Positions 19,535 to 36,404 of a DNA stretch of 64,000 bases are shown piece after piece. A model generated the notes under the pieces. That model was not told the origin of the DNA. It ran no database searches and worked only from the letters and a program-made list of their open reading frames with translations. The translations under genes were made by a program, and so were the position numbers. This DNA is from an uncultured Chloroflexia bacterium (GTDB lineage: Bacteria > Chloroflexota > Limnocylindria > Limnocylindrales > CSP1-4). How positions within the stretch are numbered: the first letter of the stretch is position 1; each line of letters begins with the position of its first letter. The DNA lies in assembly GCA_963763775.1 (NCBI GenBank), contig CAVXPZ010000004.1, forward strand, positions 288,001 to 352,000, written 5' to 3'.

Positions 19535-20422
19535 ATGACGACCGACGACGGTCCGGCGGTCGATCCCGCCGAAGGCTACGTGCCGGGCCTGACGCCGGAC
19601 CCGACCTCCACCCGGAAGGCGTCGGCGCCGCGCCCACCGACCACGCGCACCCCCACGCCGCGCATGCCCGGGTCGACGCCGCCCCGCAGCGCGGGGTACT
19701 GGCCAGCGGTCGCGATCATCGCGATCGTGGTCGCAACGGCGGGCTGGACGACGGTCGCCGTGATGGCCCTCAACAACAACGACAACGGCGGGAGCGCGGC
19801 CGCACTGGAGACGCCTGCCGCGTCGGACGCCGTCGTGGACCCGAACGCGAGTGATGACCCCGGGACGGACTTCAGCGACGCGCCGGTCGATGACAGCCAC
19901 GACGCGCCGGATCTCGAAGCGCTGCTCCCGACCGCGATCGGCGACACCGCGCTCAGCCTCCAGAGCTGGACCGGCGATTCGCTCCTCACCGCGGGCGACC
20001 CGTGGAGTGATTCCGTCACGGCATTCCTGACGACGGTCGGCAAGACCCCGGCCGACCTGAGCGCCGCCCAGGCGTTCGATGCCACGGAGGCCACGGACCA
20101 CAGCGTCGGCGTCTTCCGCCTCGATGGCGTTCCGACCAAGGCCCTCCGAGACGCGATGATCGCGGCCTGGAAGGAGAGCTACCCGGACCTCAAGGTCTCC
20201 ACGATCAAGCTCGACGGCACCGAGGTCACGAAGGGCGACTTCGGGCAGGACGCGATCGACAGCTACTGGTACGAGAAGGACGGGCTCGTCTACGACATCG
20301 AGACCTCGGACGAGAAGGTCGCGACGACGCTGGTCACCGGCATCCGGGACGGCACGCTCCCCACCGGGACCCCGGCCGCGGCCGGCTCCGAAGCGCCGTC
20401 CGAGTCGCCCGCGCCGAGCTGA
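19535..20422 (+). CDS. Hypothetical single-TM protein
   Basis: Pro-rich N-terminus, TM helix, acidic extracellular domain; codon pattern typical of the genome. Confidence 0.7.
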   Translation: MTTDDGPAVDPAEGYVPGLTPDPTSTRKASAPRPPTTRTPTPRMPGSTPPRSAGYWPAVAIIAIVVATAGWTTVAVMALNNNDNGGSAAALETPAASDAVVDPNASDDPGTDFSDAPVDDSHDAPDLEALLPTAIGDTALSLQSWTGDSLLTAGDPWSDSVTAFLTTVGKTPADLSAAQAFDATEATDHSVGVFRLDGVPTKALRDAMIAAWKESYPDLKVSTIKLDGTEVTKGDFGQDAIDSYWYEKDGLVYDIETSDEKVATTLVTGIRDGTLPTGTPAAAGSEAPSESPAPS

Positions 20423-20425
20423 GGC

Positions 20426-21244
20426 GTGCCGGAGACCTACACGCACGGGCATCACGAGAGCGTCCTTCGGTCGCATCGCTGGCGGACGGCCGAGAACTCG
20501 GCCGCGTATCTGCTGCCGCGACTGGCGCCGGGCCAGTCGCTCCTCGACGTCGGATGCGGTCCGGGCACGATCACGATCGACCTCGCGCGGCGGGTCGCCC
20601 CGGGTCGGGTCATCGGCATCGACGCGGTCGACGAGCCGCTGATCGCCGCCCGGGCCGATGCGGCGGCGGCCGGACTCGACACGGTCGCCTTCGAGGTCGG
20701 TGACGCGTACGCGCTCGCGTTCGAGGCCGAGCGGTTCGACGTCGTGCACGCGCACCAGGTGCTCCAGCATCTCGGCGACCCGGTCGCCGCGCTCCGCGAG
20801 ATGGGTCGCGTCTGCCGGGTCGACGGGGTCGTCGCGGCGCGCGACAGCGACTACGCGGCGATGACGTGGTTCCCGGCCCATCCGGGACTCGACCGATGGC
20901 TGGCCCTCTATCAGGCCGTTGCCAGGCAGAACGGCGGCGAGCCGGATGCTGGCCGCCGCCTCCTGTCGTGGGCGCAGGCCGCCGGGTTCTCCGAGATCGC
21001 GCCGTCCGCGAGCGTCTGGTGCTTCGCGACGCCCGAGGATCGGGCGTGGTGGGGGGGCCTGTGGGCCGATCGGGTCACCCGCTCCGCGTTCGCCGACCAG
21101 GCGGTCGCGGCGGGACTCGCCGACGCCACGGGACTCGGGCAGATCGCCGATGCGTGGCGGGCATGGTCCGCGGAGCCGGACGGGTGGTTCATCGTCCCGT
21201 GCGGAGAGGTGCTCTGCCGCCGACCTCGTATCCTGTCGGCGTGA
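20426..21244 (+). CDS. Class I SAM-dependent methyltransferase
   Basis: LLDVGCGPGTIT, FDVVHAHQVLQHL. Confidence 0.92.
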   Translation: MPETYTHGHHESVLRSHRWRTAENSAAYLLPRLAPGQSLLDVGCGPGTITIDLARRVAPGRVIGIDAVDEPLIAARADAAAAGLDTVAFEVGDAYALAFEAERFDVVHAHQVLQHLGDPVAALREMGRVCRVDGVVAARDSDYAAMTWFPAHPGLDRWLALYQAVARQNGGEPDAGRRLLSWAQAAGFSEIAPSASVWCFATPEDRAWWGGLWADRVTRSAFADQAVAAGLADATGLGQIADAWRAWSAEPDGWFIVPCGEVLCRRPRILSA

Positions 21245-22086
21245 GCCTGTACCGCATCGACGACCCGCCGAGGCTGATCGCCCCGACGCTGCTCGCAGCG
21301 TTCGACGGCTGGGTGGATGCGGGCTCGGCGGCCACCACCGCGCTCGAGCAGCTGACCGATGAAGCGCCGGTGGTCGCCACCTTCGACGCCGACCGACTCT
21401 TCGACTACCGCGCTCGCCGCCCGCCCCTCGAGATCGTCGACGGGCGGCTGACCGAGCTCACGTGGCCCGAGCTCGTCCTCCGGCATATCCGCATCGAGGA
21501 GCGAGATCTGCTGGTGCTCGCCGGTCCGGAGCCCGACTATCGGTGGCGCGAGCTCGTGCGATCGGCGACCGAACTCGCCCAGCGCCTCGGCGTCGCGGAG
21601 TGGATCAGCCTGGGAGCGATCCCGGCAGCCGTGCCGCACACGCGCTCGGTGCCGATCCTGGGCACGGAGTCGGCGCCCGGCCTGCTGCGCGCCGACGTCC
21701 CGGCGGGCCCGGCCGGCGTGTTGCGCGTGCCGTCGGCGCTGGTCTCCGCGCTGGAATTCGAGGCGTCCGAGGCCGGCATCCCGTCGATGGGCTACTTCGC
21801 CCAGGTCCCCCACTACGTGTCCGGCCCCTATCCGGCCGCTTCCGTGGCGCTCCTCGAGACGCTCGGGCAGCACCTGGGGATCCGGATGCCGACGGGCGAG
21901 CTCGCCGAGGAGGCGCAGCAACTCCGCACGCGCCTCGATGCCGCCGCCGCGATCGAGGAGACGACCCGGACGTACGTGGAGCGCCTCGAGGCGATGGTCG
22001 ACGAGCAGCGACTGCCCGCCGGCGACGACCTCATCGCCGACATCGAGCGGTTCCTTCGCGAGGGCGGCGAGAGCGCCTCGCGCTGA
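21241..22086 (+). CDS. PAC2 family (proteasome assembly chaperone-like) protein
   Basis: AFDGWVDAG, FDYRARRP, GPEPDYRW, VPHTR, QVPHY; GTGA overlap with the methyltransferase stop. Confidence 0.9.
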   Translation: MSLYRIDDPPRLIAPTLLAAFDGWVDAGSAATTALEQLTDEAPVVATFDADRLFDYRARRPPLEIVDGRLTELTWPELVLRHIRIEERDLLVLAGPEPDYRWRELVRSATELAQRLGVAEWISLGAIPAAVPHTRSVPILGTESAPGLLRADVPAGPAGVLRVPSALVSALEFEASEAGIPSMGYFAQVPHYVSGPYPAASVALLETLGQHLGIRMPTGELAEEAQQLRTRLDAAAAIEETTRTYVERLEAMVDEQRLPAGDDLIADIERFLREGGESASR

Positions 22087-22149
22087 CGGGTCCGCCTCCG
22101 GGCACGCAGGCCTGACCCTGGCATCGTGGCGCCAACTGGACATGCCAGA

Positions 22150-22172
22150 TACATGCCATCGAGCGTCATGAA
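22150..22172. promoter_or_regulatory. Putative WYL-regulator operator (copy 1)
   Basis: TACATGCCA-N5-CGTCATGAA imperfect palindrome just upstream of the WYL gene's -10 (TATCCT 22179). Confidence 0.55.
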
Positions 22173-22190
22173 GCGCGGTATCCTGCCGGG

Positions 22191-23401
22191 ATGCGTGCGA
22201 GTCGCCTCGTCAACCTGCTGCTGCTGCTCCAGACGCGTGGTGGGCTGACCGCCGCCGAACTGGCCCGCGAGCTCGAGGTCTCGGTCCGCACGATCCATCG
22301 CGACGTCGAGGCGTTGAGCGCCGCCGGTGTCCCGATCTACGCGGACCGTGGACCGCATGGCGGGATCCGCCTCGTCGACGGCTACCGGACCCGACTCACC
22401 GGCATGACCGCCGAAGAGGCCGAGGCCCTGTTCCTGTCCGGCCTGCCCGGCCCCGCGGCGGAACTCGGGCTCGGGACGGTCGTGACCGCGGCCCGGCTCA
22501 AGGTCCTGGCGGCGCTGCCGACGGAGCTGCGATCGCGGGCGTCCAGGCTCGTCGAGCGGTTCCACCTCGACGCCGCCGGCTGGTTCCAGGCGAGCGAGCC
22601 GGTCCCCCACCTCGCCGTGCTCGCCCAGTCCGTCTGGGACGCGAAGCTCGCGCGGATCGAGTACGAGCGCGGCGGCGGGGCGGTCGTGCGCGTCGTGGCG
22701 CCGCTCGGCCTCGTGCTCAAGGGCGGCGTCTGGTACCTCGTCGCGATCACCGACGAGCAGATCCGGACGTACCGGGTGTCGCGCGTGGTCGGAGCGGTCG
22801 TCCTCGACGAGAAGGCGCCCGGCCATCGGACTTCGATCTCGCCGCCTACTGGACGGCGTCGAGTGCCGCGTTCGAGCGCGACATCCCACGCGTCACCGTC
22901 GAGGTCCGCCTCCCCCAGGCGCGCCTGGAACGACTGGCCGACGTCGTGGGGCTCTCGACCGTCCAGGCGGCGGAGCGGCTTGACGACCCCGACCCCGACT
23001 GGGTCCGGCTCCGCTTCCAGGTGAACTGGCCGGATGAGGTCCCCGGCCACATGCTCGCGATGGGGTCGAGCCTCGAGGTGCTCGCCCCCGCCGAGATCCG
23101 GGAGCGGGTCATCGCGACCGCGCGCCGGATCATCGAACGCTACGAGCGCGACGAACCCGAGATCGGGCGCGACGGTCCACAGGCGGACGGCGGCCTGCCC
23201 GGACCCGACGAGGCGACGGACGCGGTGGGCAGAGCAGGTCCGGCGGAGCGTGCCGCGAGGGCGGAGACCGAGGCGAGGCGGCGGGCGCCGTGTGATCCAC
23301 GTGGGCCCGCCGCGCGGCGTCCCGGGCCTCGCGCCGCGCGAGGTGCAGCCATCGCAGATGGTGCGTGGCCTTCATGTCCCGGTCCCTGTCGGACTGACTG
23401 A
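22191..23401 (+). CDS. HTH-WYL-WCX transcriptional regulator (YafY/PafBC-like), frameshift near 22825; 3' end uncertain
   Basis: MRASRLVNLLLLLQ...EVSVRTIHRD, PLGLVLKGGVWYLVA, YRVSR; WCX segment EVLAPAEIRERV in the next frame. Confidence 0.9.
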
Positions 23402-23426
23402 GTCGGGCGAGTTCCAGCAGGTGCAT
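23130..23426 (-). CDS. Putative small protein
   Basis: GAGGAG RBS, ATG at 23426 (MHLLELARLSQSDRDRDMKATHHLRW...). Overlaps the low-complexity tail of the WYL ORF. Confidence 0.4.
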   Translation of the reverse strand: MHLLELARLSQSDRDRDMKATHHLRWLHLARREARDAARRAHVDHTAPAASPRSPPSRHAPPDLLCPPRPSPRRVRAGRRPPVDRRARSRVRRARSVR

Positions 23427-23492
23427 GGCGGCAGCTCCTCGGCTGGCGGCGATCGTTCGTGGTCGCTTCGTTCCTGTGGAGTGTCCCGCACG

Positions 23493-23515
23493 TACCTGCC
23501 AGGTCTTGTCATGTA
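23493..23515. promoter_or_regulatory. Putative WYL-regulator operator (copy 2)
   Basis: TACCTGCCA-N5-TGTCATGTA, same 9-5-9 geometry as 22150-22172. Confidence 0.55.
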
Positions 23516-23564
23516 CGTCCGCGGCGCCGCGCACGTCGGTCGGTCGTCTCGGAAACCGGCCCGC

Positions 23565-23930
23565 ATGCGTGCGGTGACTCCTGGGACCCGCCGCGGGACC
23601 CGCCAGGGCCGCAGACCATCCCGATCGCCTTCCCGTAGGCATCCGGTGACTGCGCGACGCGTGATCACGCGCCGAGACCCGCTGGACCGGGAGTAGCAGT
23701 CAGGTCATGACTGGCGGCCGGCGATCGCGGCCGCTAGGGCACTGTCGGCCCGGGGATCGCGCTGCGGTTCTTCGCATCCATTCACCAAGCGATGCCTGGT
23801 GGGCTCGCTGCCCCTCCACGCCGCGAATCCAGGCCGATCACGTCGCCCTAGTCATGGCCGTGGTCGCCCACGAAGCGAGCCGTGTCCAACGAGCCCCGTT
23901 CAGCTGCAGAGGCCCCGTTCCATGACTAGG
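23565..23930. repeat. Array A of degenerate 15-bp palindromes (AGTCAYS-N-SRTGACT)
   Basis: Units start at 23565, 23637, 23698, 23780, 23850 and 23913. Confidence 0.6.
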
Positions 23931-24222
23931 TGAGAAGCGAACAGTTCAAGCTTCGGCGCCACGGCACTCCCCAGGCGCTGCCTCAGAGGCCCGACACGGA
24001 ACGACCGCCAGGTCCCGAAGGGCCTGACGGTCGAATGAGATCTGACGGACCACCGCACTGGCAGTATTGCCGGCTCCGCCGCCGCCCGGCATCCCGCCGG
24101 AGGGTCGACGCGCCGCCGGTCGAAGGTCTCGTTGTCCGGCGGTCCGTTCGTGATGACCACACCGTACGACCCGGTCAGCGATGCGATACCTGCCATCCGT
24201 CCTCTTTCGGCATGGACGAATG

Positions 24223-25827
24223 TCATCCCACCGACGTCAGCGCGGGGCCCGAGGCGGCGACCGGGCCTGAGGCGGCGACCGGGCCTGACTCGCCATGGCC
24301 CGAGGCGGTCTCCACGCCCGATGCCTCGAGCGCCCGGTCCGGCAGCCAGATCAGGGCCACCAGGGCACCCGCGACCGCGAACCCGATGCCGATGAGCGAG
24401 GTCGTCGACATCGCGTCGACGAACGCCGCGCGTGCCGACTCCAACAGCGCCAAGCCGGCCTCGCCGCCGATCGTCCCGGCGACCGCGGCCGCGCCCATGA
24501 GGGAGTCGCGGGCCGCTGCCGCGGCATCGGGCGGCAGCGCAGCCGTCGACGCGGCCATGGCCGAGGCGTACATCGCCGCGAAGAGGCTGCCCAGGATCGC
24601 GACGCCGAACGCGCCACCGATCTCGCGGACGGTGTCGTTCACCGCCGACCCCACGCCGAATTGCTCCTTGGGAAGGGCGCCCATGATCGCGTCGGTGGCC
24701 GGCGTCATCGCGAGGGCGATGCCCGCGGCGAGGACGAACAGCACCAGCCCGACGTGAAGGTCTGACGACGCCACGCCCACCGTGGCCAGGAGGCCCATCC
24801 CCGCGGCGACGACCAGCAGGCCCGTGGCGGTCGTGATCCGCGCTCCGAGGGACGTCGTGGCCTTCGCGGCGATCGGCGAGACGGCGATCACGCCGATGGC
24901 GATCGGGATGAACCGGAGACCCGTGTCGAACGCCGACAGCCCGAGCACGCCCTGGAGGTACTGCGTCAGGAAGAACAGCGCCCCCATCAGCGAGAAGAAG
25001 ACCAGCGTGACGCTCAGGCTGGCGGCCGTGAAGCGCGGGTTCTCGAACAGGTGGACGTCGAGCATCGGGAATTCCACGCGACGCTCCCACGCGAAGAACA
25101 GGCTGAGCAGGACCGCCGCGGCCGCGAGCGAGCCGATGATCACGGGGTCGGTCCAGCCCCGCGATGGGATCTCGATGATCCCGTAGACGAGCGTCACGAG
25201 GCCGCCGACCGAGAGGATCGCGCCGACCGGGTCGAGCGGCACGCGGCCGGGAGCACGGGACTCGGGGATGATCGCCAGAGCCGCGACGATGCCGACGATG
25301 ACGAACGGGATGTTGACGAGGAAGACGGACCCCCAGGCGAAGTGCTCGAGCAGCCAGCCTCCGAGGACCGGGCCGACCACGATGCCGAGGCCGCTCACCG
25401 ACGACCAGACGGCGATCGCCTTCGGGCGCTCGTCGGACTCGAAGACGTCGCCGATGATCGACAGCGTCGAGGGCATCGTGAACGCGGCTCCGAGACCCAT
25501 GAAGGCCCGCAGCAGGATCAGCTGGTCGGCTGTCTGGACGAACGGAGCGAACGCGGACCCGATGCCGAACAGCGCCAGACCGACCACCAGCGCCCGCCGG
25601 CGGCCGTATCGATCCGACAGGGCGCCCGCGACGAGCAGCATGCCGGCGAAGACCAGGACGTACGCGTCGACCATCCACTGGAGCTGGCTGGACGTGGCGG
25701 ACAGGTCGCGGGCGAGCGTCGGCAGCGCGACGTTGAGGATCGTGTTGTCAAGGCTCACGCCGAACAGCGCGAGGATGAGGACGCCGAGGATCCACCATCG
25801 GCGTGCGTGGACCTGGGTGCGGGTCAT
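24223..25827 (-). CDS. DHA2 (EmrB/QacA) family MFS efflux permease
   Basis: LDNTILNVALP, GALSDRYGRRR, WGSVFLVNIP; 14-TM pattern. Confidence 0.93.
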   Translation of the reverse strand: MTRTQVHARRWWILGVLILALFGVSLDNTILNVALPTLARDLSATSSQLQWMVDAYVLVFAGMLLVAGALSDRYGRRRALVVGLALFGIGSAFAPFVQTADQLILLRAFMGLGAAFTMPSTLSIIGDVFESDERPKAIAVWSSVSGLGIVVGPVLGGWLLEHFAWGSVFLVNIPFVIVGIVAALAIIPESRAPGRVPLDPVGAILSVGGLVTLVYGIIEIPSRGWTDPVIIGSLAAAAVLLSLFFAWERRVEFPMLDVHLFENPRFTAASLSVTLVFFSLMGALFFLTQYLQGVLGLSAFDTGLRFIPIAIGVIAVSPIAAKATTSLGARITTATGLLVVAAGMGLLATVGVASSDLHVGLVLFVLAAGIALAMTPATDAIMGALPKEQFGVGSAVNDTVREIGGAFGVAILGSLFAAMYASAMAASTAALPPDAAAAARDSLMGAAAVAGTIGGEAGLALLESARAAFVDAMSTTSLIGIGFAVAGALVALIWLPDRALEASGVETASGHGESGPVAASGPVAASGPALTSVG

Positions 25828-25846
25828 GTCGTGCGGGCTCCTTGCT

Positions 25847-25937
25847 CGTACACTGTTCGAGTCGGGTCGACGGGGAACGTTACTAGTACACTGTGCGAGC
25901 GTCAAGTACACTGTACTGGACAGACGTACGTCGTACG
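25847..25937. promoter_or_regulatory. TetR operator repeats in the divergent promoter
   Basis: CGTACACTGTTCG (25847), AGTACACTGTGCG (25885), AGTACACTGTACT (25905), CGTACGTCGTACG (25925). Confidence 0.7.
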
Positions 25938-25975
25938 ACTGCGACGGATGACGTAGCTGGAGGCGACGGAACGCG

Positions 25976-26755
25976 ATGCCCACCGACCGACGCCGCGAGC
26001 GACTGGGCGACCTGCCCTGGGCGTCCCCGGCGGCGACCGACGGCCGGGCGCCCCTGACCCGCGAGGAGATCGTCGTCGCCGGTATCGCCTTGCTCGATCG
26101 GGAGGGGCCCGATGCCCTCTCGATGCGCCGCCTCGGCAAGGAGCTCGATGCGGGCGCGACGTCGCTCTACTGGCATGTCAAGGACAAGGACCAGTTGCTC
26201 GACCTGATCGTCGATGCCGTCATCGGCGAGGTGATGGGCGAGGTGACGCCGGATCCCGCCAGCCCGTGGCGGGATCGACTTCGTGACCTCGCGCGCGCGG
26301 TGCGTCAGGTCCTGATCCGCCACCGCAACGTCGCGCCCCTCCTCGGCGAACGGCCGACGATCGGCCCGGCCGCGCTCGATGCGGCCGAGTACACCATGGC
26401 GATCCTGCGCGACGCCGGGTTCGACGACCGCGCCACCTCCATGGCCTCTGGCGCGCTGATCAACTATGCGGCGGGTTTCGCCCTGTTCGAGTCGAAGAAC
26501 CCGGGTGGCGCGGACTCGCCGGAGGCACGCGCCCAGGCCGAGGCGATCATGGCCTACTTCCGCGGTCTCCCACCCGATCGCTACCCGACGCTGCTGGCGA
26601 TCGCGGACCAGTCCATCACCGAGGACGAGCAGTTCGACTACGGCCTGGACCGGCTCCTGGACGGCCTCGAGGCCGACCTCAAGAGCGGCCCCGCGAACCC
26701 GGCGCGGAGAGATCCCGCCGAGGACCGCGGCCCGAATACGATCCTGACGCACTGA
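25976..26755 (+). CDS. TetR family regulator (TetR_C domain)
   Basis: LTREEIV...LSMRRLGKEL..GATSLYWHVKDKDQL; FDYGLDRLLDGL. Confidence 0.93.
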   Translation: MPTDRRRERLGDLPWASPAATDGRAPLTREEIVVAGIALLDREGPDALSMRRLGKELDAGATSLYWHVKDKDQLLDLIVDAVIGEVMGEVTPDPASPWRDRLRDLARAVRQVLIRHRNVAPLLGERPTIGPAALDAAEYTMAILRDAGFDDRATSMASGALINYAAGFALFESKNPGGADSPEARAQAEAIMAYFRGLPPDRYPTLLAIADQSITEDEQFDYGLDRLLDGLEADLKSGPANPARRDPAEDRGPNTILTH

Positions 26756-26890
26756 TCCGCCGGCGCCCGACCAGCCTGCCGGCCGCAACGCCGACGTGAT
26801 GCGAACCGGTCGGGACGAAAGGACACCGGAGCACCGAATTCGTAGGATGGACGTCCGGGAGGCCACCGTCCCGACCCACGAGGTCCCGCC

Positions 26891-27766
26891 ATGTCGTTCG
26901 ATCCCGGCGCGCAGCTCGATCCATCACAGGTCACCGACCGGCGCGGCATGGGCCGGAACGGCGGGATCGCCATCGGCGGAGGCGGGATCGGCCTGATCCT
27001 GATCCTGGCGTACACGCTGCTCGGCGGGAACCCGAACGACATCTCGGGCCTGCTCGAACCGGGCGCGGTGACCGGCGCGGGGCCGGCGAGCTCAGCCCTC
27101 GCGACGGACTGCAAGACCGGGCAGGACGCGAACACTCGCGACGACTGCCGGATCCTGGGCTATGTCAACAGCATCCAGGCCTACTGGTCGACTGAGTTCG
27201 GTCAGTCGTCGAGCGGCCGTTACCAGCCGGCGAACACCGTGCTCTTCAGCGGCGCCATGGACAGCGGCTGCGGCACGGCCAGCGCGGCCACGGGCCCGTT
27301 CTACTGTCCGCCGGACCAGCTCGTCTACCTCGACCTCGGGTTCTTCGACGAGCTGCGGTCGCGGTTCGGCGCCACCGGCGGGTCGTTCGCGCAGGGCTAC
27401 GTCGTCGCGCACGAGTACGGCCACCACGTCCAGGACCTCCTCGGCATCCTCGGCAGCCGTGCCGCGACCGGGACCGGAGCCACCGGCGGCTCCGTCCGCA
27501 CGGAGCTCCAGGCCGACTGCCTCGCGGGCGTCTGGGCCAACCACGCGGAGGCCGGCATCCTCGCCCCGCTCACGGACGCCGAGATCGCCGACGGCCTCGA
27601 TGCCGCGGCCGCCGTCGGCGACGACCGGATCCAGGAGGCCGTGAACGGCCAGGTCGACCCCGAAGGGTGGACCCACGGGTCCGCGGCCCAGCGTCAGAAG
27701 TGGTTCACGATCGGCTACGACGGCGGCACCGCCGGGGACTGCGACACGTTCAGCGGCGGTCTGTAG
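26891..27766 (+). CDS. Neutral zinc metallopeptidase (YpfJ-like)
   Basis: GPFYCPPD, YVVAHEYGHHVQ, ELQADC, THGSAAQR. Confidence 0.93.
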   Translation: MSFDPGAQLDPSQVTDRRGMGRNGGIAIGGGGIGLILILAYTLLGGNPNDISGLLEPGAVTGAGPASSALATDCKTGQDANTRDDCRILGYVNSIQAYWSTEFGQSSSGRYQPANTVLFSGAMDSGCGTASAATGPFYCPPDQLVYLDLGFFDELRSRFGATGGSFAQGYVVAHEYGHHVQDLLGILGSRAATGTGATGGSVRTELQADCLAGVWANHAEAGILAPLTDAEIADGLDAAAAVGDDRIQEAVNGQVDPEGWTHGSAAQRQKWFTIGYDGGTAGDCDTFSGGL

Positions 27767-27832
27767 GCGCGCACCCGGCAGAACGCCCGGCACCCGCCCC
27801 ATCCCAGCACCGGTGGGCCGGCCGACCCTGTC

Positions 27833-28453
27833 CTATCCGACCGGGAGCAGGTCGGCGAGCCGCCGGTCCGCGCTCGCGATCGCCTCGGCCGGATCGCCGC
27901 CACGACGGGGGACGGCGATCTCGATGCGGATGTCGCCCGTGGCGAGGGCATCGTCGGCGTGCCGGTACGCCCGTTCGATCCGGGAGGCCAAGTGCGCGGC
28001 TTCGTCCTCGTTCGTCTCGGGCAGCATGACCAGGAAGCGCTCGGGCGCCGAGCGCACGGCCCGGTCGGTCTCTCGAGCCTCGCGGCCGAGGACCTCGGCG
28101 AACCGGACGGCCAGCCCGTCCGAGCCGGCCGTGGTGGCATCGACCGTGAGGTCCACCACGAGGATCGCCAGCGCTCGCCCATAGCGAGCCTGTCGGGCGC
28201 CTTCGTGCCGGAGCGCCTGCGCCCATTCGGCGCTGCTGTCGAGGGCCATCGACGGCCGTCGGTGGTAGCGATGGGACCGGGTCCGTCGACGGCGGACCTG
28301 CGGACCGTCGAGGAATGCCTCGATCCGGTCGGCGGCCTCCTCCTCGTGGTGATGCTCGGGGAGGGTGAACTTCGGCGAGCGGCGGACTCTCGGCGCGGCG
28401 GCGGGCCGGACGGCGGGCGCCGGCGTGGGGGTCTCGTCGTGCGCCTCGGTCAT
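27833..28453 (-). CDS. Degenerate GGDEF-domain protein
   Basis: RYGRALAILVVDL...RETDRAVRSAPERFLVMLPET...ADRRL; GGDEF is replaced by APERF. Confidence 0.7.
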   Translation of the reverse strand: MTEAHDETPTPAPAVRPAAAPRVRRSPKFTLPEHHHEEEAADRIEAFLDGPQVRRRRTRSHRYHRRPSMALDSSAEWAQALRHEGARQARYGRALAILVVDLTVDATTAGSDGLAVRFAEVLGREARETDRAVRSAPERFLVMLPETNEDEAAHLASRIERAYRHADDALATGDIRIEIAVPRRGGDPAEAIASADRRLADLLPVG

Positions 28454-28544
28454 CGGGTCAAGGATACCGGCGCTCGCCCTTGACCGCCCCGGCGCCCGGA
28501 CAGGCGGGCTCCCGTGGCTCCACGCGGACGACCGACCTCCAGGA

Positions 28545-29465
28545 TCAGCCGAACGAGGACGCCCGTGCGGCTCCGGCAGCGACGCGCGCCTCGAACCGCT
28601 TCGCGGCCTCGTCGAGGCTGGCCAGGTGCTCGGCGAGGCGTTCGCGTGCGGCCTCGGCCGCCGCATCGAGGCCGGTCAGCTCGAAGATGCCCCAGTGCTT
28701 GATGATCGGCAGCAGGACCTCGTCGCGGTGGATCCGCAGGTCGTAGATGCCGGCCTTCGCGATCTGGGCGGCCTTGCGCATGAAGCCGGGGATCCCGGCG
28801 CCCGGCATCTCGAAGGCGAGCACCTCGTCGACGATCGCGCGGACCGCGGCCGACGGATAGAGCTTGAGCGCCGCCCCGAGGATGTCGCGGTAGAACACCA
28901 TGTGCAGGTTCTCGTCGGCGGCGATCCGGACCATGATCCGGTCCGCGACCGGGTCGTCGGAGTAGCGGCCGGTGTTCCGGTGCGAGATCCGCGTGGCCAG
29001 CTCCTGGAACGCGACGTAGGCGAGGCCGCGCAGCGGGTCGGGCGACTTCCGGTCGTAGCCCTGCTGGAGCTGGGTCATGCGGCCGCGCTCGAGCAGGATG
29101 GGATCGATGTTGCGGGTGACGGTCAGGTAGTCGCGCAGCACGATCGCGTGCCGGCCCTCCTCCGCCGTCCAGCGGCCGATCCAGTTGATCCACGCCCCAT
29201 CGCCGCTGCCGAACATCCCGTGGATCAGCCGGTGGTACGAGGGCAGGTTGTCCTCGGTGAGGAGATTGACCTCGAACGCCGTCTGCGCGACGCCCGTCAG
29301 GCGTGGCTGCTCGGGTGTCCACGGGTCCTTGTCGAAGTCGCGCCCCAGGCGGTACGGGATGTAATCGTGGGGGAACCACTCCTGGGCCACCGCCGCGTGT
29401 CGGTCGTAGAGCCGGCCCGCCTCGGGTTCGAGCTCGATCAGGAGGGCGCGCTCGTCATAGGTCAT
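28545..29465 (-). CDS. Acyl-ACP desaturase (actinobacterial DesA1-like)
   Basis: LLTEDNLPSYH, WTAEEGRH, FQELATRISH, ADENLH di-iron motifs. Confidence 0.93.
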   Translation of the reverse strand: MTYDERALLIELEPEAGRLYDRHAAVAQEWFPHDYIPYRLGRDFDKDPWTPEQPRLTGVAQTAFEVNLLTEDNLPSYHRLIHGMFGSGDGAWINWIGRWTAEEGRHAIVLRDYLTVTRNIDPILLERGRMTQLQQGYDRKSPDPLRGLAYVAFQELATRISHRNTGRYSDDPVADRIMVRIAADENLHMVFYRDILGAALKLYPSAAVRAIVDEVLAFEMPGAGIPGFMRKAAQIAKAGIYDLRIHRDEVLLPIIKHWGIFELTGLDAAAEAARERLAEHLASLDEAAKRFEARVAAGAARASSFG

Positions 29466-29556
29466 GCCGGTAGGCTAGCCGTCGACCGCGTTCGCGTCTC
29501 GTGAGACCGGTGCGGACCTGCACGGGCCCTCGGCGGTCTCGGGTAGGCTCTGCGCG

Positions 29557-30342
29557 ATGCGGACCGTGAAGGCGACCCGATACGTGACGGCCCTGCGCGA
29601 GGGCGGCTCGCTGCCGGGGCTCGTCGAGGCGGACGACGACGGCCTCTACGTCGTCAAGTTCCACGGTGCCGGCCAGGGTCCGCGCGCCCTCGTCGCCGAG
29701 TGGCTCGGCGGCGAGATCGCCCGGGCGCTCGGTCTCGCCGTGCCCGACCTCGTCGCGGTCGATCTCGACCCGGCGCTCGGCGACGCCGAACCGCACCAGG
29801 AGATCCAGGACCTCGTGCGCGCGAGCGGCGGCCTGAACCTGGGGCTCGACTTCCTGCCCGGGGCGCTGATGTTCAACCCGGCGTCGGCGACGTCCCTCGC
29901 GGCGATGGACCCGGAGACCGCCGCATCGATCGTGTGGCTGGACGGGCTCATCACGAACCCGGACCGGTCCGTCCAGAACCCGAACCTGCTCGTCTGGCAC
30001 GGTCGGACCTGGCTCATCGACCATGGTGCCGCCCTCTACATCCACCACACGTGGCGCGACCCCGAGGCACACGCCAGGCGGCCGTTCGACCGGCTCGCGG
30101 GCCACGTCCTGCTGCCGTTCGCTGGCTCGCTCGCCGATGCCGACGCTCGCCTCGCCGGACGCGTGGACGCCGCGCTCCTGCGCGACCTCGTCGACCAGAT
30201 CCCCGATGTCTGGCTGCCGTCGGATCCGCTCGGCGGCGACGCCGCGTCGCAGCGCCGACGATACGTCGACTACCTCGGCCGCCGGCTCGAGGCGCCGCGA
30301 CCGTTCGTCGAGGACGCCGAGCGTGCCCGTGCCGCCGCATGA
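29557..30342 (+). CDS. HipA-like kinase
   Basis: LREGGSLPG, YVVKF.GAGQG, NPDRS..NPNLL, LIDHG. Confidence 0.88.
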   Translation: MRTVKATRYVTALREGGSLPGLVEADDDGLYVVKFHGAGQGPRALVAEWLGGEIARALGLAVPDLVAVDLDPALGDAEPHQEIQDLVRASGGLNLGLDFLPGALMFNPASATSLAAMDPETAASIVWLDGLITNPDRSVQNPNLLVWHGRTWLIDHGAALYIHHTWRDPEAHARRPFDRLAGHVLLPFAGSLADADARLAGRVDAALLRDLVDQIPDVWLPSDPLGGDAASQRRRYVDYLGRRLEAPRPFVEDAERARAAA

Positions 30343-30373
30343 CCAGGACGCCGGGGTGAGCGGCGTGGGCCCG

Positions 30374-30769
30374 ATGAGCAGCGACCCGTCGGGGCGTGAT
30401 GTCTTCCAGTACGCGGTCGTCCGGGTGGTCCCGCGCGTGGAACGCGGTGAACAGCTCAACGTCGGTGTGATCCTGCTGTGCCGGGGCCGGCGCTATCTGG
30501 GGGCGAAGGTCGTCCTCGACGAGCGGCGGCTCAGCGCCCTCGCGCCGGAGCTCGATCTCGATGCGATCCGTCCGCATCTCGACGCGATCGAGCGGATCGC
30601 CGCCGGCGACCCGACGGCCGGGCCGATCGCCCGGCTGGACGCCGCCGAGCGGTTCCACTGGCTCGTCTCGCCCGCGAGCACGATCATCCAGCCATCGGAG
30701 GTCCACACGGGGCTGAGCGACGACCCGGCTCGCGAGCTGGACGACCTGGTCGAGAAACTGGTCCGGTAG
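30374..30769 (+). CDS. DUF3037 domain protein
   Basis: FQYAVVRVVPRVERGEQLNVG...RFHWL.SPASTIIQ.S.VHTG. Confidence 0.9.
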   Translation: MSSDPSGRDVFQYAVVRVVPRVERGEQLNVGVILLCRGRRYLGAKVVLDERRLSALAPELDLDAIRPHLDAIERIAAGDPTAGPIARLDAAERFHWLVSPASTIIQPSEVHTGLSDDPARELDDLVEKLVR

Positions 30770-30790
30770 GGAGGGAGCCCCGGCGCGCGA

Positions 30791-31171
30791 TCAGGCGGCG
30801 AGATCGTCCGCGATGACCTCGATCATCGGCGCGTAGGCGGTCATGGTCGCGGGATCCTGGTTCCGCCACGCGTGCGTGCTGATCCACTCCGCGAGCCACT
30901 GCCGCTCGACGGGATCCGTGATGACCCTGGCCGTCGCCGGGACGTCGGCCACGACCGGACCCTTCAGATGGACGACCACTCGCGGATCCGCCTCGAGATT
31001 GAGGAGCCACGCTCGCTTGCGGTCGGCCCGAGGCATGCCCGAGATGTAGATCCGGCCATCGATCACGTGGTCGACGATCTCGATGCGCCTCGGCTGACCC
31101 GTCTTGCGGCCGATGGTGGTGATGTCGATCGTCTGCCCGTGCCGCAATGCGCGGCTGACCTGTTCGTCCAT
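30791..31171 (-). CDS. F420-dependent nitroreductase/DUF385-like protein
   Basis: DITTIGRKTGQPRRIEI, WLLNLEADP. Confidence 0.8.
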   Translation of the reverse strand: MDEQVSRALRHGQTIDITTIGRKTGQPRRIEIVDHVIDGRIYISGMPRADRKRAWLLNLEADPRVVVHLKGPVVADVPATARVITDPVERQWLAEWISTHAWRNQDPATMTAYAPMIEVIADDLAA

Positions 31172-31203
31172 GGCGGGGGTCGTGCTCCTCGTCCGCTGTT
31201 TGG

Positions 31204-31221
31204 TAGTTGCGAGAGCAACTA
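31204..31221. promoter_or_regulatory. Palindromic operator (MarR-like)
   Basis: Perfect inverted repeat TAGTTGC-GAGA-GCAACTA upstream of the 31171 gene. Confidence 0.6.
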
Positions 31222-31278
31222 GCCTACGTCGGACGCCGCGGTCGCGCAAACACCGGGTAGCGCCTGCTCGGGCGGGAC

Positions 31279-31854
31279 TCAGCCCTTGGCGGTCTTCGCC
31301 GCCTTCGCCTCGGCCTTTCGTGCGCGCTTGCCGGCCTGGTACGCGGCCAGCGACTCCGGCGAGTCGACATCGGCCAGCGTCGGGTTCGTGGTCACGACCG
31401 CCTCCCAGCCGGTCGGGTGGACGCCGAACCGTTTGGTCAGGATCGCGACCAGGGTCTTCGCCTTCATGTCGCCGATGCCGGGCAGACCGAGCAGGCGCGC
31501 CTCGAGATCCTTGCCGGTCGCGGCCTCCGACCACACTCGGCCGGCGTCGTTGCCGTACTCGTCGGCGATCGCCCGGCACAGGTCCTGGACGCGCGTCGCC
31601 ATCGCGCCAGGGAACCGGTGGAGCGCCGGCGGCTTGCGGAACACGGCGTCGAGGTCGGCCGGTTCCATGCCGGCGATCTTCGCGGCATCGAGATGCCCGA
31701 GCCGTCGCTGGAGCTCGAGCGGGCCGCTGAACGCCTTCTGGACGGTCACCTGCTGGTCGAGCTCGAAGCCGATGAGCAGGGCGAGCGGGTCGGTCGCGAG
31801 GAGGCGGTCCGCCTCGTCGTCACCGGTGAACGGCAGTCGGTCGATGGTGGTCAT
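31279..31854 (-). CDS. HhH-GPD-type base excision repair protein
   Basis: DPLALLIGFELDQQ, PALHRFPGAMA, LPGIGDMKAK. Confidence 0.9.
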   Translation of the reverse strand: MTTIDRLPFTGDDEADRLLATDPLALLIGFELDQQVTVQKAFSGPLELQRRLGHLDAAKIAGMEPADLDAVFRKPPALHRFPGAMATRVQDLCRAIADEYGNDAGRVWSEAATGKDLEARLLGLPGIGDMKAKTLVAILTKRFGVHPTGWEAVVTTNPTLADVDSPESLAAYQAGKRARKAEAKAAKTAKG

Positions 31855-31890
31855 GGCGGCATGGTAGCCCGCGCTGCTACCCTCCGGACG

Positions 31891-33141
31891 ATGGCCCTCG
31901 ACCCCCGCCGCCCTCGCCTCATCGCCGCACGCCACCTCCTCGATGTCGCGACCGGGTCGTGGCTCGACGACCGTCGGATCCTCGTCGCGGCGGATCGGAT
32001 CGAGGCGGTCCTCGGACCCGGCGATCCGGTGCCCGACGACGCCCTGCCGATCACCGTTCGCGGCGACTGGGTCGTCCCGGGTCTCATCGACTGCCACAGC
32101 CACCAGATCGGCGAGATGGAATACGCGGGCATCCCGGCGATCGACGCCTCCCCCGCGCAGGAGGCGATGAGCGGCGTCCGCAACGCCCGCGACACGCTCC
32201 GAGCCGGGTTCACGACGGTGCGCGATGTCGGCACGTTCTGGGCGTTCGTCGACGTGGCGCTGCGAGATGCCATCGACGCCGGCTGGACGCCCGGACCCCG
32301 GATGCAGTGCGCGGGCGCCTACATCACGTGCCCGGGCGGCGGCGGCGAGGTCACGGGCGACGCCCCGTCGATGCGTCTGCCGGACGGGCTCCGGTTCGGC
32401 GTGGTCCGCGATGCGGACGAGGTCCGCGCCAGGGTCCGGGCACTGGTCGCCGGCGGCGCCGACGTCATCAAGTGCATCGTCACGGGCGCGGTCCTCACGC
32501 GCGGCACCGACCCGGATGCCGTGGAACTCGCCGAACCGCTGGTCCGTGCCGCCGTCGAGGAAGCCGCGGCGCATGGCCGGTTCGTGGCCGCCCACGCCCA
32601 CGGCACCGAGGGGATCAAGGTCGCGATCCGCGCCGGCGTCCGGTCGATCGAGCACGGGTCGCTCATCGACGACGAGGGGATCGCGATGCTCGCCGACACG
32701 GGGACCTACTGGGTTGCCGACGTCTATGACGGCGACTGGATCGCCGAGGAAGGCCGCCGGTCGGGTTGGCCAGCCGAGACGATGGCGAAGAACGAGGCGA
32801 CCACCCAGGCCCAGCGCGACGGGTTCTCGAAGGCCGTGGCCGCGGGCGTCCGGCTCGCCTACGGCACCGACAGCGGCGTCTACCCGCACCGGATGGTCGC
32901 GATCCAGCTCGGCTACCAGGTCCGGTTGGGTCAGACGCCCGCGGAAGCGATCCGCTCCGCGACCCTGACCGCGGCGGAGTGCCTCGGCTGGGACGACCGC
33001 GTCGGATCGTTCTCGCCGGGCCGCTTCGCGGACCTCGTCACCGTCGACGCGGACCCGCTGACCGACATCGAGGTCCTGCGCCGGCCGACGGCGGTCATGA
33101 AGGGCGGCGAGCTGGTGGACCTGGGAGCGGTCAGCGACTGA
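31891..33141 (+). CDS. Amidohydrolase (Xaa-Pro dipeptidase-like)
   Basis: PGLIDCHSH, GFTTVRDVG, AAHAHG, SIEHG, YGTDSG. Confidence 0.92.
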   Translation: MALDPRRPRLIAARHLLDVATGSWLDDRRILVAADRIEAVLGPGDPVPDDALPITVRGDWVVPGLIDCHSHQIGEMEYAGIPAIDASPAQEAMSGVRNARDTLRAGFTTVRDVGTFWAFVDVALRDAIDAGWTPGPRMQCAGAYITCPGGGGEVTGDAPSMRLPDGLRFGVVRDADEVRARVRALVAGGADVIKCIVTGAVLTRGTDPDAVELAEPLVRAAVEEAAAHGRFVAAHAHGTEGIKVAIRAGVRSIEHGSLIDDEGIAMLADTGTYWVADVYDGDWIAEEGRRSGWPAETMAKNEATTQAQRDGFSKAVAAGVRLAYGTDSGVYPHRMVAIQLGYQVRLGQTPAEAIRSATLTAAECLGWDDRVGSFSPGRFADLVTVDADPLTDIEVLRRPTAVMKGGELVDLGAVSD

Positions 33142-33400
33142 CCGCCGATCGGCGACCGGACCGCGAGCCCGTCCGGGATGGGCCGGGGATCATCGCGGAT
33201 CCGAGCGCGATCAGCCCACGACCCAGTCGAAACCGCACCCGCAGCACCGGCCCGACGTGGACCCCGGCGGCTGAGCCATCCGGACCGTCCACCGTCCGGA
33301 CGCGGTGGCGCTCGTCGTGGAAGCCCGCGATCCGATCGCTGACGGTCTCGAAGGGCAGGTCGAACGTCGAACGGGCTGGTTCCGGGGACAGGCAGGACAT
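33131..33400 (-). CDS. Hypothetical small protein
   Basis: GAGGAG RBS and ATG at 33400; no recognisable family. Confidence 0.4.
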   Translation of the reverse strand: MSCLSPEPARSTFDLPFETVSDRIAGFHDERHRVRTVDGPDGSAAGVHVGPVLRVRFRLGRGLIALGSAMIPGPSRTGSRSGRRSAVSR

Positions 33401-33467
33401 CAGGGCACTCCTCACGTGGTGGCCGGGGCGTCGAGTCGGCGCTGGACGCGGGACGAGACGGACTCGT

Positions 33468-33872
33468 TCATTCGATCGCGATCCGGACGCCGTCGCCGTC
33501 GTCGTCGATCTGGACGATCGGGCCCTTGAAGCCCGACGCGAGGGCCGCGCGGATGCGGTCGGCCATCGACTCCGTCAGGCCCGGGATGCTGTCGATCGCG
33601 GCCCGGCCCAGCGCGAGCGGGACACGCAGGTTCACGACCTGGCGGCCCTCATCGCTGATCTCGATCCGGATGGCGCGCGCGGGGGCGTCGTCGGAGGACG
33701 CCTTCGACGCCCCCTCGAACGCGCGCTGGTCGGAGTCGGTGTCATAGGGGGCGGCCGCCTCGGCGGCGGCCGACCGGCCATCGAGGGCATCGAGGATCGG
33801 GCCGGCCTCCTCGGCCGTGAGGCGACCCTCGGCCACGAGGCGGAGGACCTGGTCGAGCGCGTCGTCAGGCAT
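33468..33872 (-). CDS. SHOCT-like domain protein
   Basis: VLRLVAEGRLTAEEA...VNLRVPL...GPIVQIDD. Confidence 0.8.
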   Translation of the reverse strand: MPDDALDQVLRLVAEGRLTAEEAGPILDALDGRSAAAEAAAPYDTDSDQRAFEGASKASSDDAPARAIRIEISDEGRQVVNLRVPLALGRAAIDSIPGLTESMADRIRAALASGFKGPIVQIDDDGDGVRIAIE

Positions 33873-34953
33873 CGGTCGAGTCCTCGGCGGGCGCCGCGAT
33901 GACGCCATCGGAACCGGGATCTGGATCGGCCGTCGCGGCCGTCGCCTCGGCCGGGATGTCCGCATCGAGGGAGGCGTCCCCATCGAGTCCGTCCAGCCGA
34001 CGCGTGGCCTCGTCGATGTCGATCTCGCCACGCTCGAGGGCGCGGAGGATGGACAGTCGCGCGGCTTCGGTCGGGTCCGCATCCGCGGCCACGTCATCGC
34101 TGACGGAGACCGCGGCCTCGCCACCATCGGCGTCGGCGGACGGTCCGGGGGCCGATATCAGGGCCTCGGGATCGGCATCGGGGCGAACGACCGGCGACGG
34201 TCGGACGAGCCGTACGTCGCCCGACGTGGACCGAACGTTCAAGGTGGGTCCGCCACGCCCGATCGTCACCGACCGGTGCCCGCGACCGCCGTCGGATCGG
34301 CCGTCCACCTCGGAGCGGAGGTCGCCCGTCACCGATCGCAGCTCCACGCGGACGTCGCCCGCGAGCGCGAGCAGCGCGTCGCCGCTCACGGTCTCGATGG
34401 AGAACGGTCCCGGGCCGGCAAGACGGCCGGCGATACGCAGGTCACCGCTGGTCGTGGACGCCCGGAGCGACGCGATGGTCGCGGCCCGCAAGGCGAGGTC
34501 GCCCGAGACGGTCCGGGCCTGCAGGAACGCATCGTCGACGACCGTCGCCTCGACGTCGCCGGACACCGCCTCGATCGTGAGGCGTCCAGCCACGCCGCGC
34601 AGCCGGACGTCGCCGGATGCCGTGCGGTATCGCTGCTCCCCGAGCAACCCCTCGACGACGATCTTGCCGCTCGCGGACTCGACGACCACGCTGGCCGATG
34701 CCGGGACGTCGATCTCGAGGTCGACCGAGCCACGACGGGATCCACCCGTGAACGGGTCGACGCCCGTACTGACGGCGAGGCTGCCGTCGCCCTTTTCGAT
34801 CTGGAGCGCCGAGCCGGTCTCGCCGTTGCCGTGGATCCGGACGGTGGTGCCCTCGACGCCCCGCAGTCGCACGGCGCCATGCCGAGTGCGGACGGAGACG
34901 ACGCCCCTCGCGCCGATGTCGTGGGCGAGCTCGATGGGGCTGGCCGCGGTCAT
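33865..34953 (-). CDS. DUF4097 beta-strand repeat protein with C-terminal SHOCT-like motif
   Basis: Repeated TxSGD motifs; ILRALERGEIDIDEA. Confidence 0.88.
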   Translation of the reverse strand: MTAASPIELAHDIGARGVVSVRTRHGAVRLRGVEGTTVRIHGNGETGSALQIEKGDGSLAVSTGVDPFTGGSRRGSVDLEIDVPASASVVVESASGKIVVEGLLGEQRYRTASGDVRLRGVAGRLTIEAVSGDVEATVVDDAFLQARTVSGDLALRAATIASLRASTTSGDLRIAGRLAGPGPFSIETVSGDALLALAGDVRVELRSVTGDLRSEVDGRSDGGRGHRSVTIGRGGPTLNVRSTSGDVRLVRPSPVVRPDADPEALISAPGPSADADGGEAAVSVSDDVAADADPTEAARLSILRALERGEIDIDEATRRLDGLDGDASLDADIPAEATAATADPDPGSDGVIAAPAEDSTDA

Positions 34954-35366
34954 CGTCGGGACCTCCCGAGCGCGCGGATCGCGGTGGCCGCGTCCTCGGC
35001 GCTCATCTCGTGACGGGCCAGCATCCCGAGGATCTCCTCGCGAGATTCCGGCGCGTTCGTGACCACGGTCGGGTCGTCGATCTCATCGGCGTCGGCGCGC
35101 GCTCCGAACCCGAGGGCTCGGACCAGGGCCTCGACGCGGGACCGGACCGTGGGATAGCTGATGCCGAGCTCGCGCTCCATCTCGCGGAGGTTGCCCCGCG
35201 ATCGCAGGAAGCTCTCGAGCAGCGCCAGCTGCTCGCGGTTCAGGCGGCCGAACCGGCCGACGCTGAAGTCGCCTTCCAGCGCGGTCCCGCAACTCCGGCA
35301 GTGCAGACGTGTGACGGAGAGCTCGCCGGCGCACACCGGACAGGTGGAGATGACGTCGTGTGCCAT
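34950..35366 (-). CDS. DUF2089 family zinc-ribbon/HTH protein
   Basis: CPVC...CRSCGT..EGDF, GNLREMERELGISYPTVRSR. Confidence 0.92.
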   Translation of the reverse strand: MAHDVISTCPVCAGELSVTRLHCRSCGTALEGDFSVGRFGRLNREQLALLESFLRSRGNLREMERELGISYPTVRSRVEALVRALGFGARADADEIDDPTVVTNAPESREEILGMLARHEMSAEDAATAIRALGRSRR

Positions 35367-35403
35367 AAGGTCGGTCCTTCGGTTCCTCGTGCGTGTGGCA
35401 CCT

Positions 35404-35450
35404 GTTGTAATACACGCCTTTCACTTTGTCAATATCCAACATCACTTTGT
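35404..35450 (-). promoter_or_regulatory. Sigma70-type promoter of the DUF2089 operon with a direct-repeat site
   Basis: Minus strand TTGACA (35432-35427), 17 nt, TACAAC. TCACTTTGT is repeated at 35421 and 35442. Confidence 0.65.
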
Positions 35451-35643
35451 GGCATGTCGCACCGGTGCAACGGCAACAGCGCCGTTCGCGCATCGTCAAC
35501 CGTCCATCCCGGGTCGGGAGCGTTTGCCGGGGCGACGAACCGGCCTTCGTCCGCTGGTCCGGATCGGGCCGTCGGCGAGACTGCTGGACATCGGGGTGAC
35601 CGGATGCGTCACCCAGGTGCAGGACCGGAAAGGAGACGAACCG

Positions 35644-35763
35644 ATGTCCGCTCACCAGCAGATCGTCCGGGCAGACCCACTCGGCGCCGTGCCGGCCGCC
35701 CTGGTCGTGATCATGGCCATCCTCGCGATGCTCGGCGTCATCGCCCACGCGGCAGTCCTCTAA
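35644..35763 (+). CDS. 39-aa single-TM small protein
   Basis: GAAAGGAGA RBS; MSAHQQIVRADPLGAVPAALVVIMAILAMLGVIAHAAVL*. Confidence 0.65.
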   Translation: MSAHQQIVRADPLGAVPAALVVIMAILAMLGVIAHAAVL

Positions 35764-35900
35764 GGGCTCGCCCTCGTCGACGCCGACGCTCCTCAGCTCT
35801 TCCCGGCCCCGGCAGGACGTCAGCCCTGACCGGGGCCTCCGTTCGCCCTGGGCGAGCTCGAGCGACGGCCGCAGCGGGGCGCTCATCGGATCGCCGTCCG

Positions 35901-36357: not shown

Positions 36358-36371
36358 GCAGCGCGGACCGT

Positions 36372-36404
36372 GGATCCGAGGGCGGCCGCGGATCCGAGGG
36401 CGGC
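36372..36404. repeat. Short tandem duplication
   Basis: GGATCCGAGGGCGGC at 36372 and 36390 (18-bp period). Confidence 0.7.

Follow-up and report, generated by a model that had tools for sequence, protein, structure and literature searches.

A small dispersed intergenic repeat built of three palindromes in an uncultured Chloroflexia bacterium, with likeness to MITEs and REPINs

Introduction

Among the small dispersed repeats of bacteria, MITEs such as Correia, ERIC/IRU, RUP, and bcr1 are 100-200 bp long and carry terminal inverted repeats. The BOX elements of pneumococci are modular boxA-boxB-boxC repeats, and we know of no transposase of their own. Another compact arrangement of multiple sites, the res site of Tn3/gamma-delta-type resolvases, holds three dimer-binding subsites within ~120 bp, and recombination between dispersed res-like copies would be deleterious. 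The catalog of small dispersed repeats is poor for uncultured high-G+C bacteria of the soil.

Here we analyze two clusters of palindromes, arrays A and B, in a 64-kb window (the whole stretch of DNA under study) of the genome of an uncultured Chloroflexia bacterium from soil, hereafter G000, whose assembly comprises 3.30 Mb in 4 contigs at 71% G+C and is 87% complete. We argue, with a probability of about 0.6, that both arrays belong to a lineage-amplified, MITE/REPIN-like dispersed repeat whose phased palindromes would be protein-binding sites on duplex DNA.

Palindrome Enrichment in Arrays A and B

A sequence-only reading of the window had listed six 15-mers in array A, and all six are present as given, starting at positions 23565 (ATGCGTGCGGTGACT), 23637, 23698, 23780, 23850, and 23913, with spacings of 72, 61, 82, 70, and 63 bp. 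The further likenesses that it listed were also re-found: the flank GGTGACTGCGCGA is shared between array A (23645) and array B (36329), GGTGACTCCT (23573) recurs as its reverse complement at 36086-36095, and array A holds an 11-bp inverted repeat (23847/23920).

Allowing at most one mismatch, the pattern AGTCA-N5-TGACT has five matches in the window, and all five lie inside arrays A and B. The shuffle control that had been proposed as a check places these clusters beyond the dinucleotide-shuffled background, as the mean over 100 shuffles was 0.53 matches and the highest count 4, with none of the 100 reaching five. The whole 3.30-Mb assembly contains 19 such matches, nine of them exact. Half-sites (AGTCAY/RTGACT) number 477 in 3.30 Mb, or 0.144 per kb, compared with five in 348 bp of array A and eight in 385 bp of array B, and at least four half-sites fall within 500 bp at only five places genome-wide. 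Within array A, only the sites at 23637 and 23698 fit AGTCA-N5-TGACT with at most one mismatch; the site at 23565 is a single half-site, and those at 23780 and 23913 are arm cores and that at 23850 a central palindrome, all of one larger unit.

The weakness of three of the six array A sites is the one point that speaks for chance groupings of a short G+C-rich motif as the explanation of the clusters. This explanation is refuted by the shuffle controls, the genome-wide half-site density, profile E-values that reach 1e-43, and a reversed-pattern control (1 match against 48 for the exact box pattern described below), and we find it scarcely credible.

Anatomy of the Repeat Unit

The repeat was defined by nhmmer profile searches seeded with array B and a similar stretch of contig 3, which converged; raw blastn searches of the genome with the two spacers gave too much noise to delimit the family, so that profiles were required. 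A covariance model, R1, was then built from seven units. These searches revise the anatomy of the arrays. A free-standing 15-bp palindrome in arrays of six had been proposed, and instead we find a unit of three palindromes with two tandem units in each array, as the scores of the unit model resolve the "six sites" into two units of three boxes each. The spacers of the two arrays had not been aligned in that reading, but the profile search aligns them. Arrays A and B thus each comprise two tandem copies of a single non-coding unit, one intact and one decayed.

The unit is ~165-190 bp long (157-195 bp over the copies measured) and forms a large imperfect palindrome that contains three 15-bp AGTC-N7-GACT palindromes. 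Its order is CTTCnCG(n3), the first palindrome, a central palindrome flanked by both boxes, the third palindrome, and (n3)CGnGAAG, with palindrome starts ~51 and 62 bp apart. In array A, the intact unit (A2) occupies 23756-23942 on the minus strand (nhmmer E 2.3e-27; R1 114.5 bits, E 2.1e-29, model positions 1-177), with arm cores at 23780-23794 and 23913-23927 and the central palindrome at 23850-23864. The decayed second unit, or fragments of one (A1), lies at 23565-23745, with palindromes or half-sites at 23565-23579, 23637-23651, and 23698-23712; R1 gives it only 5.2 bits (E 0.029, at 23637-23743), and an arm-like match covers 23639-23657 (E 0.0077). In array B, the intact unit occupies 36193-36359 on the plus strand (nhmmer E 5.6e-32; R1 142.2 bits), with its left arm at 36208-36228, central palindrome at 36259-36273, and right palindrome and arm at 36315-36335. 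Its decayed partner, assigned to the plus strand at 35923-36112, retains AGTCAC at 35946 and palindromes at 36017-36031 and 36089-36103, and is matched by R1 on both strands (21.2 bits at 35932-36050, plus, E 3.9e-6; 16.7 bits at 35923-36112, minus, E 4.9e-5). As the unit is almost symmetric, the orientation that the model assigns to a match is unreliable. No Pfam family was found in the ORFs overlapping the two arrays.

Full-length units number six in G000, and together with partial ones the repeat occupies about 12 intergenic loci. Besides those of arrays A and B, the profile search placed full units at C3:163427-163605, C3:215512-215698, C3:340693-340879, and C4:64756-64933. Partial or decayed copies lie near C2:129.2 kb, C4:239.3 kb, C4:246.7 kb, C1:159.8 kb, and C1:1458.1 kb, and a weak copy lies near C1:1113.5 kb. 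The G000 copies are old, their interiors being ~55-65% alike, and are marked by two derived features that are absent from other species, a degenerate first palindrome and extended arms (CAGACGGGnCCTGTG / CACAGGGGTCGnCTG). Inverted arms of ~40 bp surround the central palindrome, and all 12 arms of the six units can be aligned, the left arm reading CTTCnCGnnT-AGTCAC-CAG-nCGnnCCCTGTG. Left arms are closer to other left arms than to their own right arms, suggesting that all G000 copies derive from one asymmetric master.

Insertion Sites and Neighboring Features

Comparison with relatives shows that the units have been inserted into intergenic DNA in a lineage-specific manner, for the most part where two genes converge. 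Every unit locus in G000 is intergenic, several lie between convergent 3' ends, and many units lie just beyond gene 3' ends; housekeeping genes adjoin units, including 11 units in other species. Filled and empty sites contrast between relatives at two loci. At C3:215512, the space between two convergent genes measures ~290 bp in G000 and ~25-30 bp in G017 and G032. At array B, an insert of ~560 bp (35860-36425) that contains the array in G000 is missing from the orthologous spacer of G017, G043, and G061, where the distance from a conserved upstream terminator hairpin to the TTGACA promoter of an ArsR-like gene is 135-347 bp, compared with 692 bp in G000. The orthologous spacers compared from the five nearest relatives contain no unit.

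To the right of array B, GGATCCGAGGGCGGC occurs twice at 36372-36404, directly beside the array. Further on, at 36431-36479, the TTGACA hexamer is followed by a palindrome, GTTCAA-N6-TTGAAC, ahead of an operon encoding an ArsR-like HTH_20 protein and an MFS_3 protein. G017, G043, and G061 retain the hexamer and the half-sites of the palindrome, which is probably the operon's own operator.

At array A, the G000 segment 23515-23985 takes the place where G017 and G061 have a plus-strand DUF4112-like membrane protein gene (blastn of the locus against five relatives, with reading of L019:1514-2013 and L018), a gene that G000 lacks at this locus. DUF4112 is Pfam-confirmed in G127, G046, and G105, where a unit lies between a WYL regulator gene and a candidate RNA, with DUF4112 further on. 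A unit is therefore found at the same WYL/RNA-candidate locus in G000, G046, G105, and G127. Nevertheless, among 34 pieces of this locus (~29 species), only that of G046 scores with the unit model, so the link between unit and WYL gene is not general. The WYL regulator was accordingly rejected as a general binding partner of the unit, given this single scoring piece and a frameshifted gene in G000. The outcome of these comparisons is that both long "non-coding" spacers of the window are accounted for as insertions and that the DUF4112-like gene of relatives is shown to be absent from the array A locus of G000.

The WYL gene itself (HTH_11-WYL-WCX; 22191-23170, plus strand) is split over two frames that correspond to residues 1-207 and 210-329 of the G046 homolog, with a break near 22811-22817. 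Loss of a single base would explain the split, and the broken gene may represent either a true pseudogene or an artifact of assembly. Overlapping the 3' tail of the WYL frame is a small minus-strand ORF (23133-23426) that matches no Pfam family. A GAGGAG ribosome-binding site precedes its ATG (23426) by 8 nt, and relatives conserve both this start and the region upstream of it (23373-23515).

On its other side, array A adjoins a candidate structured RNA on the minus strand (24036-24170), with a promoter-like block at ~24200-24245. This candidate is 77-93% identical across the genus, compared with 71-78% for the neighboring coding sequence, and it is non-coding, as indels disrupt all reading frames. 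It folds as a rod of 28 pairs in which G-U-compatible changes favor the minus strand and one pair is compensatory (CG to UA in 4/26), and it has no Rfam match. It is single-copy, comes after a PAC2 gene in most species, and is present in 8/9 sampled genomes of the genus and in 17/44 of the family (four further genera), and in 0/106 genomes from other families of the class. Between array A and this candidate lies a terminator-like hairpin (23997-24040) that is conserved in G017 and G061; in several members of the genus (L107-L109, L112, L113, L116, L119, and L022), tandem TTGTTCTTCAG-like repeats adjoin the candidate where G000 has a hairpin. Elsewhere in the window, the MFS gene ends in two tandem copies of an 18-bp unit at its 3' side (24251-24287), and an Rfam match to the ASdes sRNA (29092-29159, plus strand; 50.3 bits against a gathering score of 40) lies within a fatty-acid desaturase gene of the opposite strand.

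Occurrence in Related Genomes

All genomes compared are MAGs that are 55-95% complete. The proposal that arrays A and B are members of one dispersed element class is borne out by the profile and R1 matches, and the dispersed copies likewise bear out the view that they are neither local operators nor the product of a recent A-to-B duplication. The suggested count of similar clusters finds them both elsewhere in G000 and in related MAGs. Searches with exact or near-exact patterns had made the family seem confined to G000. The sequence AGTCAYNNNRTGACT occurs seven times in G000 and at most once in any of 30 relatives, and the G000-type arm pattern has only two single one-mismatch matches in 130 other species of the genus, compared with three for the reversed control.

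R1 altered this view. With it, full-length units were detected in 21/130 other genomes of the genus, with 1-8 matches each, and in those species the design of the unit is easier to discern. In whole-genome searches, none of the five closest relatives of G000 had a match with E below 0.05. The exact box-plus-palindrome pattern has 48 matches in 10/131 genomes of the genus (one for the reversed control); G000 itself has none because its outer palindromes are degenerate. In a sample of 150 further genomes of the family, the covariance model search gave three matches at E <=1e-4. Those in G301 and G203, which belong to other genera, have triple AGTC-N7-GACT palindromes at spacings of 50-51 and 61-84 bp and different flanking boxes, while the third is without such palindromes and is probably false.

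A metagenome scan with the G000-type arm gave 35 matches, of which only L080 and L068 are members of the family. These two are contigs of a sister lineage that carry G000-type copies, one of them at an orthologous locus. In the wider scan of genome contigs, 14 single matches to the G000-type arm were judged to be chance, since the profile search gave no unit-length match for any of them. Plasmids and phages gave no blastn match to 35900-36400. Four DNA sequencing runs yielded only short contigs of low depth at 23674-24170, uninformative as to mechanism.

Duplex DNA Geometry and RNA Structure

The spacing check suggested at the outset shows that distances between palindromes fall into classes ~10-11 bp apart. 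Of 73 adjacent-palindrome distances, 66 belong to the classes 31-33, 41-42, 50-52, 61-62, and 71-75 bp, with a best period of ~10.5 bp (R 0.82), a count that is suggestive rather than a probability because there are few spacing classes among related copies. Palindrome offsets within the unit are nearly constant (18, 69, and 131), and the array A spacings (61-63, 70-72, and 82 bp) fall on the same ladder.

It is also conceivable that the units are genes for structured non-coding RNAs, or else elements of 3'-UTRs or terminators, in which the arms and palindromes would be RNA stems. The arms pair in predicted folds that are better than shuffles for two units, the intact unit of array B (z -2.14, DNA fold) and another (z -2.45), and the RNAalifold consensus has a long arm helix in which 11/32 pairs show at least one double change. 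The T-G combination is common at palindrome position 6/10 (30/91), and the position of many units just beyond gene 3' ends would suit such elements as well. However, the covariation term of the consensus is +1.95, which gives no net support, and the intact unit of array A folds no better than shuffles (z -0.96). Complementarity of flanks and boxes is about the same within units as between units (0.667 vs. 0.645 and 0.663 vs. 0.646), and position 5/11 of the palindrome alone co-varies (41/91 Watson-Crick pairs vs. ~26 expected from the marginals, by hand calculation). In addition, Rfam covariance models applied to positions 20000-40000 of the window at E up to 1 gave no match in either array, simple promoter and terminator scans of both spacers found none, and steps quantized at ~10.5 bp would be unexpected for RNA. 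We therefore regard RNA function as quite improbable. Together, the phasing and stem tests favor a protein that recognizes duplex DNA over an RNA or hairpins of single strands, and helical phasing along with the lack of stem covariation makes a trans-acting factor, as originally suggested, plausible.

Conservation of the unit gives conflicting results on constraint. Between G000 and the orthologous copy in L080, 156/180 positions are identical (86.7%), compared with 41-49% in the flanks and 79.5% in the adjacent coding sequence, which suggests selection on the whole unit. Between G131 and G128, whose flanking genes are nearly identical, the boxes are 90-100% and the spacers 37-60% identical (by reading of the alignment). 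On these alignments, the boxes appear to be the part that is always kept.

A different explanation of these features is that the units form a platform of fixed sites for some conserved host protein that binds DNA, for instance a regulator or a nucleoid/chromosome-organizing factor. The units would then be functional cis elements that come and go in ordinary evolution and are not copied. The 4-N7-4 palindrome geometry and helically phased spacing would suit such a platform, as would the architecture kept across genera though the flanking boxes differ, the high identity of the orthologous copy relative to its flanks, the lack of a transposase, RAYT, or regular target duplication (see below), and the occurrence of a unit at one WYL/RNA-candidate locus in four genomes. 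It is nevertheless somewhat unlikely. The six G000 copies with common derived arms argue for copying, and unrelated loci share entire 170-bp blocks, beyond the sites alone. Between convergent 3' ends, where many of the copies are found, no promoter is available for regulation. The same genes are present in the five nearest relatives, which lack the unit, and the WYL link is not general. More specifically, several units are not in the promoter position that characterizes transcription-factor operators, and the units are not retained at the orthologous spacers compared from the five nearest relatives.

Proposed Copying and Binding of the Unit

The RAYT family (Y1_Tnp, PF01797) was found in 0/131 genomes of the genus, G000 included, by a search that found it in 6/14 reference genomes. 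A REP/BIME/REPIN population maintained by a RAYT (Y1) transposase was considered since short G+C-rich inverted palindromes, extragenic clusters, and lineage-specific types fit published descriptions of REPINs and BIMEs (PMC3116915; PMC2817692). The absence of PF01797, about 12 loci instead of hundreds, and three palindromes per unit instead of a REP doublet bring this explanation close to refutation, and we rate it as highly improbable. A CRISPR-like array was also rejected, as the boxes are palindromic and three per unit, and there is no direct-repeat array.

Neither G000 nor any of the 10 genomes that contain exact boxes has two arms or boxes separated by 0.7-3 kb, and hence no parent insertion sequence is visible, although absence is not proven in assemblies that are 55-95% complete. 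Two units of G046 that are 1.8 kb apart were inspected for an intervening transposase, and the segment contains a DUF2269 membrane protein and an unassigned ORF. There is also no constant target-site duplication: the longest flanking direct repeat averages 6.9 bp, compared with 6.4 bp in cross-unit controls, and at 35/37 units the repeats are no longer than in controls. The other two units have direct repeats of 21 and 12 bp, which bracket L143 (G128:C2:194062-194528) and L024 (G000 C3:215.5 kb), respectively. As these repeats sit 8-17 bp outside the modeled ends, except for one L024 end that is 2 bp inside, the inserted segment at these two loci may be slightly larger than the modeled unit.

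The evidence is weighed here in favor of a lineage-amplified MITE/REPIN-like repeat that would bind protein. Since derived arms specific to the lineage are common to all six dispersed G000 copies, copying is the likelier origin, and the copies would have multiplied from one master within this lineage. The three palindromes may be sites at which a dimeric protein contacts the DNA duplex on one of its faces, and this putative binder could be the element's own mobilizing enzyme, a host protein that co-opts the element, or both. Under such a scheme, the unit would behave as a non-autonomous repeat of the MITE/REPIN type. Against the mobile part of this reading stand the low copy number (about 12 loci), the lack of a mobilizing enzyme, and the lack of a regular target-site duplication. 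In addition, the G000/L080 conservation and the persistence of the 51/62 architecture across genera are signs of function and speak against selfish spread.

A more speculative version, which we consider rather unlikely, is that the unit is the cis half of an undescribed REPIN-like partnership, in which one vertically inherited DNA-binding protein of this bacterial family would both copy and use the unit, binding as three dimers on one DNA face at ~5 and 6 helical turns, without RAYT or a known transposase. If such a partnership were true, the use of the unit could be as a chromosome-organizing, insulating, or termination site. More generally, if protein binding were shown, the family would be a tractable case of repeat amplification or co-option without RAYT or a parent insertion sequence.

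Comparison With Known Repeat Systems

The arrays had been put forward as the best candidate for an undescribed system in the window. This does not hold for the kind of element, which is known among bacterial small dispersed repeats. The text retrieved in a literature search does not describe this particular family, which does not show that no description exists, and a survey of MITEs across prokaryotes (PMC11602168) may include it.

Like REPINs and BIMEs, the unit combines short extragenic inverted palindromes into a larger hairpin-like structure that forms tandem clusters at some loci, and it has a lineage-specific sequence type, a location at gene 3' ends, and no coding capacity. Unlike them, it is unaccompanied by RAYT in 131/131 genomes of the genus and occupies about a dozen loci rather than hundreds, so that neither a cognate RAYT nor a high copy number (only five dense clusters in G000) links it to REPIN/RAYT systems. 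It also differs in having three palindromes at fixed, phased spacing and in what is conserved, namely the CTTCnCG boxes and the four outermost bases at either end of the palindrome (AGTC/GACT).

Compared with MITEs, whose features we take in part from a review (PMC10969869), the unit is similarly 100-200 bp long, and thus below 500 bp, and non-coding, with terminal inverted repeats of ~25-40 bp, an intergenic location, and multiple diverged, dispersed copies. It also shows filled and empty sites between relatives and folds as a long imperfect hairpin. It differs from MITEs in that we found neither a target-site duplication of constant length nor an autonomous parent insertion sequence with the same ends, in the internal copy of the terminal palindrome that carries both boxes, and in the conservation of one orthologous copy above the neighboring coding sequence. 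The unit behaves like a MITE or a REPIN yet fails the defining tests of both, as it comes with neither a parent insertion sequence nor a target duplication nor a RAYT.

Similar to BOX elements (see PMC3049150), the unit is a modular small interspersed repeat in which conserved boxes are split by variable stretches, but its sequence and host phylum are unrelated, and BOX modules are not three phased copies of one palindrome. By analogy with res sites, the three imperfect palindromes within 115-130 bp suggest that a three-dimer complex might form on duplex DNA; unlike res sites, the units are dispersed over about a dozen spacers, and no recombinase gene lies beside the copies examined.

Overall, the unit belongs to the bacterial small dispersed repeats (MITE/REP-BIME-REPIN/ERIC-like), although it fits no defined family. 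Its design is unusually regular, with one palindrome used three times at helically phased distances and an internal copy that carries both boxes.
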